Positions 24,110-26,648 of a DNA stretch of 64,000 nt are shown piece after piece. Both the position numbers and the translations under genes were made by a program. Positions within the stretch are counted from its first letter, which is position 1. Each line of letters begins with the position of its first letter. Location: NCBI RefSeq assembly GCF_058153355.1, contig NZ_CM177019.1. One strand, given 5' to 3'. A model generated the notes under the pieces. The model did no database searches and was not told the origin of the DNA. It saw only the letters and a program-made list of their open reading frames with translations.

Positions 24110-26648
24110 AGCTGGCTTGTTAGCGGTTCAGCGTCTGGTGCGAGTCTGGAAGTTGATAATGGTCAGATTACCAATATTAATACTGATGTTGCTTACGATG
24201 CCTACCTGGTTGGGTGGTATGGCACTGGAGTGCTTAATATTTTGGCTGGCGGTAATGCCTCCTTAACCACTATTACTACCAGCGTCATTGGTGGTAATGA
24301 GGACTCAGAGGGCACCGTTAACGTTTTGGGTGGCACCTGGCGATTGTATGATAGCGGAAATAATGCAAGGCCTTTAAATGTGGGTCAATCCGGAACGGGG
24401 ACGCTGAATATTAAACAGAAGGGTCATGTTGACGGAGGATATTTAAGGATAGGTTCTTCGACAGGAGGCGTCGGGACGGTCAATGTTGAAGGAGAGGACT
24501 CGGTTCTGACGACCGAATTATTCGAAATAGGGAGTTACGGTACAGGCTCATTAAATATTACGGATAAGGGTTACGTCACGAGTTCAATAGTCGCCATTGT
24601 AGGATATCAGGCGAACAGTAATGGTAAGGTTGTCGTTGAAAAGGGTGGCGAGTGGCTAATAAAAAATAATGATTCCTCAATTGAATTTCAAATTGGTAAT
24701 CAAGGGACGGGCGAAGCAACTATTCGCGATGGGGGGCTAATTACGGCTGAAAATACGATTATCGGTGGCAACCTCACCGGTATCGGAACCCTGAATGTGC
24801 AGGATCAAGACTCTGTCATCACGGTACGCAGACTCTATATATTACTTTTTTGGGCGATAAAGCAAGCGGTATCGGCACACTGAACCTGATGGATGCGACA
24901 TCATCGTTCGATACTGTAGGTATCAATGTCGGTAATTTTGGTAGCGGCATCGTAAATGTCAGTAATGGTGCCACCCTTAATTCAACGGGCTATGGATTTA
25001 TCGGAGGAAATGCCTCCGGTAAGGGGATAGTTAATATTTCAACGGATAGTCTCTGGAATTTAAAAACGTCATCTACTAACGCCCAATTGCTACAGGTCGG
25101 TGTATTAGGCACGGGTGAACTGAATATTACCACCGGAGGTATAGTTAAAGCGCGTGATACACAGATAGCTCTCAATGACAAAAGTAAGGGCGACGTGCGG
25201 GTAGATGGGCAGAACTCTCTTCTTGAAACATTCAATATGAACGTAGGGACGACTGGCACAGGTACGTTAACCCTGACGAATAACGGCACGCTGAATGTCG
25301 AAGGTGGAGAAGTTTACTTAGGTGTTTTTGAGCCTGCCGTAGGAACGCTAAACATTGGTGCTGCTCACGGTGAGGTGGCGGCAGATGCCGGGTTTATCAC
25401 CAATGCGACGAAAGTGGAGTTTGGTCTTGGCGAAGGCGTTTTTGTCTTTAATCATACCAATAACAGTGATGCCGGCTACCAGGTCGATATGCTGATTACG
25501 GGTGACGATAAAGACGGAAAAGTGATGCATGATGCAGGCCATACGGTGTTCAATGCAGGGAATACTTATAGCGGCAAAACGCTGGTCAATGACGGCCTCC
25601 TGACTATTGCGTCACATACGGCAGATGGGGTAACAGGCATGGGTTCGAGTGAAGTAACCATTGCAAGCCCCGGTACGCTCGACATTCTCGCATCAACGAA
25701 CAGCGCAGGAGATTACACGCTGACCAATGCACTCAAAGGCGATGGCTTGAATTCAATATGAACGTAGGGACGACTGGCACAGGTACGTTAACCCTGACGA
25801 ATAACGGCACGCTGAATGTCGAAGGTGGAGAAGTTTACTTAGGTGTTTTTGAGCCTGCCGTAGGAACGCTAAACATTGGTGCTGCTCACGGTGAGGTGGC
25901 GGCAGATGCCGGGTTTATCACCAATGCGACGAAAGTGGAGTTTGGTCTTGGCGAAGGCGTTTTTGTCTTTAATCATACCAATAACAGTGATGCCGGCTAC
26001 CAGGTCGATATGCTGATTACGGGTGACGATAAAGACGGAAAAGTGATGCATGATGCAGGCCATACGGTGTTCAATGCAGGGAATACTTATAGCGGCAAAA
26101 CGCTGGTCAATGACGGCCTCCTGACTATTGCGTCACATACGGCAGATGGGGTAACAGGCATGGGTTCGAGTGAAGTAACCATTGCAAGCCCCGGTACGCT
26201 CGACATTCTCGCATCAACGAACAGCGCAGGAGATTACACGCTGACCAATGCACTCAAAGGCGATGGCTTGATGCGAGTGCAGCTGTCATCCTTCGACAAA
26301 ATGTTTGGCTTTACCCATGCAACAGGAACTGAATTCGCCGGTGTTGCCCAACTGAAAGACAGTACCTTCACACTGGAACGCGACAACACCGCTGCGCTTA
26401 CTCACGCGATGCTTCAGTCTGACAGTGAAAATACCACATCGGTAAAAGTGGGAGAGCAATCCATTGGTGGACTAGCCATGAATGGCGGTACGCTCACTTT
26501 CGATACGGATATACCTGCTGCGACGCTTGCGGAGGGATATATCAGCGTCGATACACTGGTTGTCGGCGCGGGTGACTACACCTGGAAAGGCCGTAACTAT
26601 CAGGTAAACGGGACGGGCGACGTGCTTTCCGCAAGTGCAGATGCATGA
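24110..26648 (+). pseudogene. yneO: Decayed autotransporter/AIDA-like adhesin passenger region (yneO-like)
   Basis: Reading frame opens right after a stop with no start codon or signal peptide; repetitive GTGTLNI / GSGxxNV beta-helix passenger repeats across three ORF fragments; one frameshift near 24820, a second at the 521-bp duplication junction; no C-terminal beta-barrel. Confidence 0.7.
25230..26271 (+). repeat. Perfect tandem duplication, 2 x 521 bp, inside the adhesin pseudogene
   Basis: 25230-25750 and 25751-26271 encode identical peptides in both the sense and antisense six-frame ORFs; 521 is not a multiple of 3, so the junction shifts the frame. Confidence 0.9.

Follow-up and report, generated by a model that had tools for sequence, protein, structure and literature searches.

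A passenger-coding segment of 521 bp is duplicated head to tail, with no mismatch between the copies, in an Escherichia coli chromosome, and we consider it highly probable that this duplication is genuine, very recent and private to one strain, and that it lies inside a non-functional remnant of a yneO/ECSE_1600-family autotransporter gene. The window analysed is a 64,000-nt stretch of contig NZ_CM177019.1 (assembly GCF_058153355.1), and all positions given below are those of this window unless another sequence is named.

Structure of the duplication and its junction

The two copies of the unit occupy positions 25230–25750 and 25751–26271 of the plus strand, each corresponding to approximately residues 602–776, in the passenger region, of the intact 1806-aa protein. 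An exact nucleotide comparison of the two gave 0 mismatches over 521 nt each, and the copies are contiguous, so that the perfect head-to-tail duplication of the original prediction is confirmed at the level of the DNA. The period-521 match grows by 0 nt leftward and by 0 nt rightward, which gives exactly 2.000 copies, and in the 100 nt on either flank the period-521 identity is 24% and 21%, i.e. at the random level. A repeat search, in which the display ends at 300 nt, also returned the pair 25230/25751 with a spacing of 521 and 100% identity; Tandem Repeats Finder, for which the longest period handled is 500, does not list it. No third or partial copy of the unit was found in the 64-kb window. 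A perfect repeat of 521 nt cannot have arisen by chance.

The novel junction (25744–25757, plus strand) joins GGCTTGA to ATTCAAT with 0 nt of microhomology, and in its longer form reads AAAGGCGATGGCTTGA followed directly by ATTCAATATGAACGT. Because 521 leaves a remainder of 2 when divided by 3, the reading frame is broken at this point. The ORF at 24850–25761 runs into copy 1 and ends with N-S-I-stop three codons beyond the junction, the stop codon being at 25759–25761, and a second ORF restarts at an ATG at 25758, 8 nt past the junction; the two ORFs are 303 and 296 aa long. The frame break had been foreseen from the length of the unit, which is not divisible by three, and it is real, but it has no consequence, since by then the gene lacked promoter, start codon, signal peptide and barrel and was frameshifted by a 532-nt deletion. 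The junction also creates a GAATTC (EcoRI) site at 25749–25754. Neither parental end has an EcoRI site; hence the GAATTC is a by-product of the join, and a cloning artefact at an EcoRI site was rejected.

The host gene is a remnant of a yneO/ECSE_1600-family autotransporter

In the host E. coli, the locus reads lsrR (21415–22368), lsrK (22447–24039), the autotransporter remnant and then a hipA 3′ remnant. In K-12 MG1655 the order is lsrK-yneO-hipB-hipA, with yneO (b4696) being a pseudogene; the remnant in the window lies at the location that is expected for the yneO family, between lsrK and hipBA, and its counterpart DNA in E. coli genomes is annotated as ‘ECSE_1600 family autotransporter’. 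The fragments in the window match NCBIfam NF011422 with 502.7, 644.1 and 633.2 bits at profile positions 57–298, 476–776 and 605–894 of 1806, respectively, against 4138 bits on the same profile for the 1806-aa protein of the intact relative L014. The curated cut-off of NF011422 is 2335 bits for a full-length match, and every fragment of the window falls below it; the locus is thus a remnant derived from a member of the ECSE_1600 family, and not a functional member. The yneO-like adhesin host named in the original prediction is well supported by this profile match and by the place that the remnant shares with yneO of K-12.

Three pieces of the autotransporter gene are left around the duplicated unit, all on the plus strand. 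The first, fragment B (24124–24839; profile positions 57–298, 502.7 bits), has 99.7% identity to L014 13320–14037, and its frame is open from 24110, without the native start. Fragment C, upstream of the repeat (24840–25229), covers approximately residues 473–601 of the intact protein, and the piece following the duplicated unit (26272–26627; profile positions 777–894) is the last surviving part of the gene. Approximately 37% of the coding positions are left (57–298 and 476–894 of 1806), and positions 605–776 are present twice. The L014 protein has Pfam matches to ESPR, Pertactin, AC_1 and Autotransporter. The extended signal peptide ESPR (PF13018), present in intact relatives, is absent in the window, where profile positions 1–56 and the upstream region were lost to the first of three deletions (del1); the C-terminal beta-barrel (PF03797/TIGR01414) is likewise absent, everything beyond position 894 having been lost to the third (del3).

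Read in the coordinates of L014, the window follows the relative to 12713, continues with 13320–14037 and 14569–15480, goes back to 14960–15836 and resumes from 20202 onward. Alignment to each of the 20-odd reference loci gave the same picture of deletions, whose sizes are corrected here for the 1–2 nt by which the alignment blocks of L014 overlap. At the del1 junction (24122–24123, plus strand), 607 nt are missing in BLAST alignments to the intact relatives L001, L002 and L014, with 1 nt of microhomology, and with them the lsrK-autotransporter intergenic region, the promoter, the start codon and the ESPR signal peptide. At the del2 junction (24839–24840, plus strand) an internal piece of 532 nt is missing, again with 1 nt of microhomology, and the frame is shifted. 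The del3 junction (26626–26628, plus strand) marks the absence of 4367 nt relative to L014, with approximately 2 nt of microhomology; this deletion removes the rest of the passenger, the beta-barrel, hipB and hipA except for its last ∼177 nt. The hipA 3′ remnant that is left lies at 26628–26802 on the plus strand (window 26626–26895 aligns to L002 8062–8332, and hipA of L002 is annotated at 6916–8238). The hipBA toxin-antitoxin locus is gone, and del3 has joined its hipA remnant, 26626–26802 when counted from the first base of the junction, to the middle of the passenger-coding sequence. Among the matches listed for 5,426 complete E. coli genomes, none is contiguous across the del1 or the del2 junction, and no record spans the junction of del3, for which the matches are annotated as hipA.

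The window locus and yneO of K-12 (b4696) are alike in chromosomal position, in protein family and in being non-functional. In K-12, however, yneO is a nearly full-length pseudogene of 5.4 kb, whereas the window keeps approximately 37% of the gene and has also lost hipB and most of hipA. Many other E. coli strains carry truncated or fragmented versions of the yneO-family gene.

Close relatives carry the deletions and a single copy of the unit

We looked up the 213-aa Prodigal product that crosses del2 by its exact sequence, which led to a second sample, SRR28786219. Over 7,509 nt, its Logan contig SRR28786219_223 (L025) shows 2 mismatches to the window; it contains the junctions of del1, del2 and del3, holds the 521-bp unit once and encodes exactly the 412-aa product expected from the unduplicated allele. 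The same 412-aa product is encoded by SRR8656992_11 (L028), which carries del2 and del3 and has the unit once, and a 40-mer over the del2 junction was found in both contigs. The unit is single in all 22 of the 22 reference loci that contain it, L025 and L028 included, and the duplication junction is absent from these 22 loci. Look-ups of LsrK and LsrR led to common E. coli loci only, which served as references with a single copy. Thus, because L025 and L028 carry deletions together with one copy, the deletions precede the duplication. The duplication would then be the newest event at the locus and, as far as can be judged from these sequences, private to the strain of the window; perfect identity of the copies fits this reading. 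A recent event had been proposed, together with a comparison of related strains as one way to check it, and both close relatives are indeed single-copy, the nearer of them at a distance of 2 SNPs in 7.5 kb.

Wider searches pointed the same way. A 200-nt probe over the junction gave no contiguous match among the matches listed for the 5,426 complete E. coli genomes, and its best matches are split in two, the pieces adding up to exactly one 521-bp unit. The junction was not found in GTDB species representatives or in JGI metagenomes. Exact look-ups of the 296-aa ORF, of a 217-aa ORF from a GTG start and of a 290-aa junction-spanning product returned no match, and neither of two versions of the product expected from a contig made of the unit only has an exact match in the protein/contig collection; the 521-nt loop contig in that collection is either not gene-called or called differently. 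Exact-product look-ups found no junction-spanning contig in the collection, and the duplication is carried by one sample only.

Both relatives have deletions of their own. In L025, 195 bp corresponding to window 26665–26859 are missing, with 3 nt of microhomology (TTT), and in L028 1,479 bp corresponding to window 23043–24521 are missing, including the 3′ end of lsrK, with 6 nt of microhomology. The window itself has derived A alleles at 25203 and 22662, where L025 and 15–18 reference loci have G. The G-to-A change at 25203 precedes the left breakpoint of the duplication by 27 nt, and this nearness could be due to chance (about 3%) or could be a trace of error-prone synthesis at the rearrangement. 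In the lsr region (window 12000–24100), identity to most complete E. coli genomes is approximately 97.2%, and identity to a subset (L001 and L014–L023) is 99.2–99.3%; the strain may belong to a less-sampled lineage, or the segment may have a distinct recombination history.

Contig breaks in an independent assembly support a genuine duplication

Logan contigs are de Bruijn assemblies with k = 31 made straight from public read sets. One of them, SRR31441161_197 (L003), is identical to window 26242–36007 at 100% and starts 30 nt (k − 1) inside the right end of copy 2. It follows from k = 31 that the contig on the left side must end at 25259 and that the gene at its edge must be the translation of 24889–25257. 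This predicted 123-aa product was found once, on SRR31441161_248 (L024), a contig which equals window 15329–25259 at 100% and ends 30 nt into copy 1. As a control, the same k = 31 pipeline passes both boundaries of the unit unbroken in the single-copy contigs L025 and L028. In the reads of SRR31441161, each end of the unit thus occurs in a second context as well, at the bases that the duplication predicts, contig breaks at k = 31 being a measure of second contexts and not of the 60-nt junction, the copy number or the share of cells. SRR31441161 may be the source data of the window itself, in which case this support is independent of the assembler and not of the library.

These breaks bear directly on whether the true genome is single-copy, the second copy being the product of a false loop in the assembly graph or of a repetitive passenger that was resolved wrongly, an account which we regard as very unlikely. 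A mis-traversed graph loop would produce the same outcome of perfect identity and exactly two copies, and it would agree with a protein/contig collection in which no contig spans the junction and with the absence of the junction from every other collection searched. However, a single copy would offer no loop to traverse, the breaks of the SRR31441161 contigs lie exactly 30 nt within the two outer boundaries, one of these breaks having been predicted beforehand, and the pipeline runs unbroken through the unit in two single-copy relatives. Self-BLAST of the intact gene found no internal repeat, either of nucleotides or of protein, so that an artefact of a repetitive passenger, which the original prediction had offered as a possibility, fails for want of internal repeats that could confuse an assembler, and is further contradicted by the contig breaks at both boundaries.

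More than two copies, or a mixed population, would give the same de Bruijn graph, and in cultured bacteria tandem duplications form and disappear frequently. The duplication could thus be real but sub-clonal, or present in three or more copies that are reported as two. We consider this unlikely: the assembler of the window settled on two copies, nothing suggests selection for amplification, and the path through the junction outlasted the clean-up of Logan contigs, which, as we understand that pipeline, argues against a very rare variant. In addition, the k = 31 graph shows only two contexts for each unit end, a pattern that would also arise if a second copy of the 521-bp segment lay at another genomic site and had been misassembled as a head-to-tail copy. 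Such a dispersed copy is highly improbable, as in the assembly of the window the last base of the unit is followed immediately by its first, without foreign sequence in between, the rest of the 64 kb holds neither a full nor a partial copy, and the unit is bordered by neither a mobile element nor a target-site duplication.

Homology-independent joining is the likely origin

The longest words common to the two breakpoints (within ±30 to 100 nt) are 5–8 nt in direct and 5–9 nt in inverted orientation, and no direct or inverted repeat near the breakpoints is longer than those given by random pairs of windows. Unequal crossing-over calls for a flanking direct repeat of tens of bp or more (an R-D-R-D-R arrangement), which is absent here, and in place of the microhomology of a few to ∼15 bp that slippage would call for, the breakpoints share 0 nt. 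With neither a shared repeat nor microhomology, RecA-mediated unequal crossing-over and simple slipped-strand mispairing are therefore both unlikely. Slippage on a CTTGA word located 3 nt upstream of the left breakpoint was considered and rejected; it would give a unit of 524 bp, not 521. The RecA-dependent and short-repeat classes of duplications are reportedly reviewed by Reams and Roth, and illegitimate recombination in E. coli that is mediated by gyrase or topoisomerase and independent of short homology is said to have been described by Ikeda and colleagues.

All four junctions of the locus have 0–2 nt of microhomology (0 for the duplication; 1, 1 and approximately 2 for del1, del2 and del3), and in this they resemble the products of short-homology-independent recombination or template switching in E. 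coli, a likeness that we take as an analogy and not as demonstrated membership. Homology-independent illegitimate recombination or template switching is the likely origin of the duplication, judging from its junction. The events would have taken place in two steps. An ancestor would have lost 607 nt from the 5′ end of the gene, 532 nt from its interior and a 4.4-kb block from mid-passenger through most of hipA; the head-to-tail copying of 521 bp of the passenger-coding DNA that was left would have followed, in this strain alone. The join may have been made by a switch of the replication template between sister strands, or alternatively by break and rejoin, e.g. through subunit exchange of topoisomerase or gyrase.

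As in other spontaneous tandem duplications, the copies here are head to tail, perfectly identical and absent from near-identical relatives, and instability would be expected likewise. In a genome-wide survey in Salmonella, Sun et al. (2012; PMC3411829) found frequent spontaneous rearrangements in chemostat populations, and all the spontaneous duplications that were confirmed were bounded by direct repeats (deduced cut-off for the repeat, ≥11 bp), the candidates having been selected by microhomology length. The duplication in the window differs from these in its 0 nt of microhomology and in the lack of a flanking repeat; its junction is thus unusual compared with the confirmed Salmonella duplications and belongs to the homology-independent minority. 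A 2026 preprint counted 4–53 tandem duplications per genome in eight bacterial reference genomes, and hence tandem duplications as such are common.

Four junctions with 0–2 nt of microhomology lie inside 2.5 kb, and three near-identical strains have three different private structural changes within approximately 4 kb, namely the 521-bp duplication, the 195-bp deletion and the 1,479-bp deletion. Together with the derived SNP 27 nt from the duplication breakpoint, this could hint at a local hotspot for homology-independent rearrangement in the yneO remnant, through multi-step template switching of the MMBIR/FoSTeS type or a fragile site, which we nevertheless regard as quite unlikely; independent neutral decay of a dead locus is a simpler account of the clustered rearrangements.

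Neighbouring features of the window

Downstream of the hipA remnant, positions 26900–33000 form an island ahead of a fimbrial operon, which is present in some E. coli only, there downstream of an intact hipBA (L016–L018). It holds small unannotated ORFs of 112, 115 and 129 aa without NCBIfam matches, a 654-aa ORF (30945–32909) whose counterpart in relatives is annotated or scored as an ankyrin-repeat protein, and a 400-aa leucine-rich-repeat (LRR) protein on the minus strand (28610–29812) with a tandem period of 60 nt at 28733–29105. The LRR part of this protein resembles the type III effectors SspH2, SlrP and GogB, with E values of 1e-31 to 2e-9 for matches that fall far short of the family cut-offs, and no match to an E3-ligase domain was found in the protein. 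Its length differs in relatives (460 aa in L001 and 505 aa in L016), apparently via the number of 20-aa repeats, and DNA identity to relatives falls to 92–97% in the region of the gene. A perfect 9-nt tandem repeat within it, TCTTGCTGG in four copies at 29617–29652, codes on the minus strand for a short repeated run of Ser, Lys and Thr and is a candidate for slippage-driven length variation.

On the other side of the remnant, a 402-aa ORF on the minus strand (13651–14859) lies between the tam methyltransferase gene and the lsr operon. It is annotated in matching E. coli genomes as an IS605-type ‘RNA-guided endonuclease InsQ/TnpB family protein’, and it occupies this site in some reference loci only.

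Consequence and significance of the duplication

Tandem changes in passenger-coding DNA are known from in-frame variation of repeat number in autotransporter passengers and other surface proteins, and the present case shares with them a passenger-coding site in an AIDA-type adhesin gene. Unlike in those systems, the unit is not a multiple of 3, there is no pre-existing repeat module and the gene is dead; the duplication is not antigenic or length variation.

An adaptive duplication, selected for a newly expressed ORF or regulatory element, has a negligible probability in our estimate. What might speak for it are the two ORFs of 303 and 296 aa that the junction produces, the second of which begins at the ATG 8 nt past it. 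But this same ATG is already present in the single-copy allele, no promoter-like site was found at or near the junction, for which reason a new promoter there was rejected, and the carriage of the duplication by a single sample is likewise against selection. The native promoter, signal peptide and beta-barrel are gone, and from what the sequence retains no product could be exported or reach the surface without signal peptide and barrel. Because the gene was dead before it was duplicated, the duplication should be without effect for the cell and almost certainly neutral. It would persist by drift, and it could be lost again via recombination between the identical copies.

As an event the duplication is of a well-known kind, of which this instance is undescribed; it affects a gene that is known as a pseudogene in K-12 and is degraded in many strains. 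Its biological weight is little, as the gene was already dead and nothing functional was created. In practical terms, it is an example of how a perfect tandem duplication in a draft or finished genome can be checked when reads are not at hand, from the predicted break points of an independent k-mer assembly, and it provides a clean natural case of a homology-free tandem duplication dated against three older deletions. For the family, the locus adds one more route by which the yneO autotransporter and the hipBA toxin-antitoxin system were lost in E. coli lineages.
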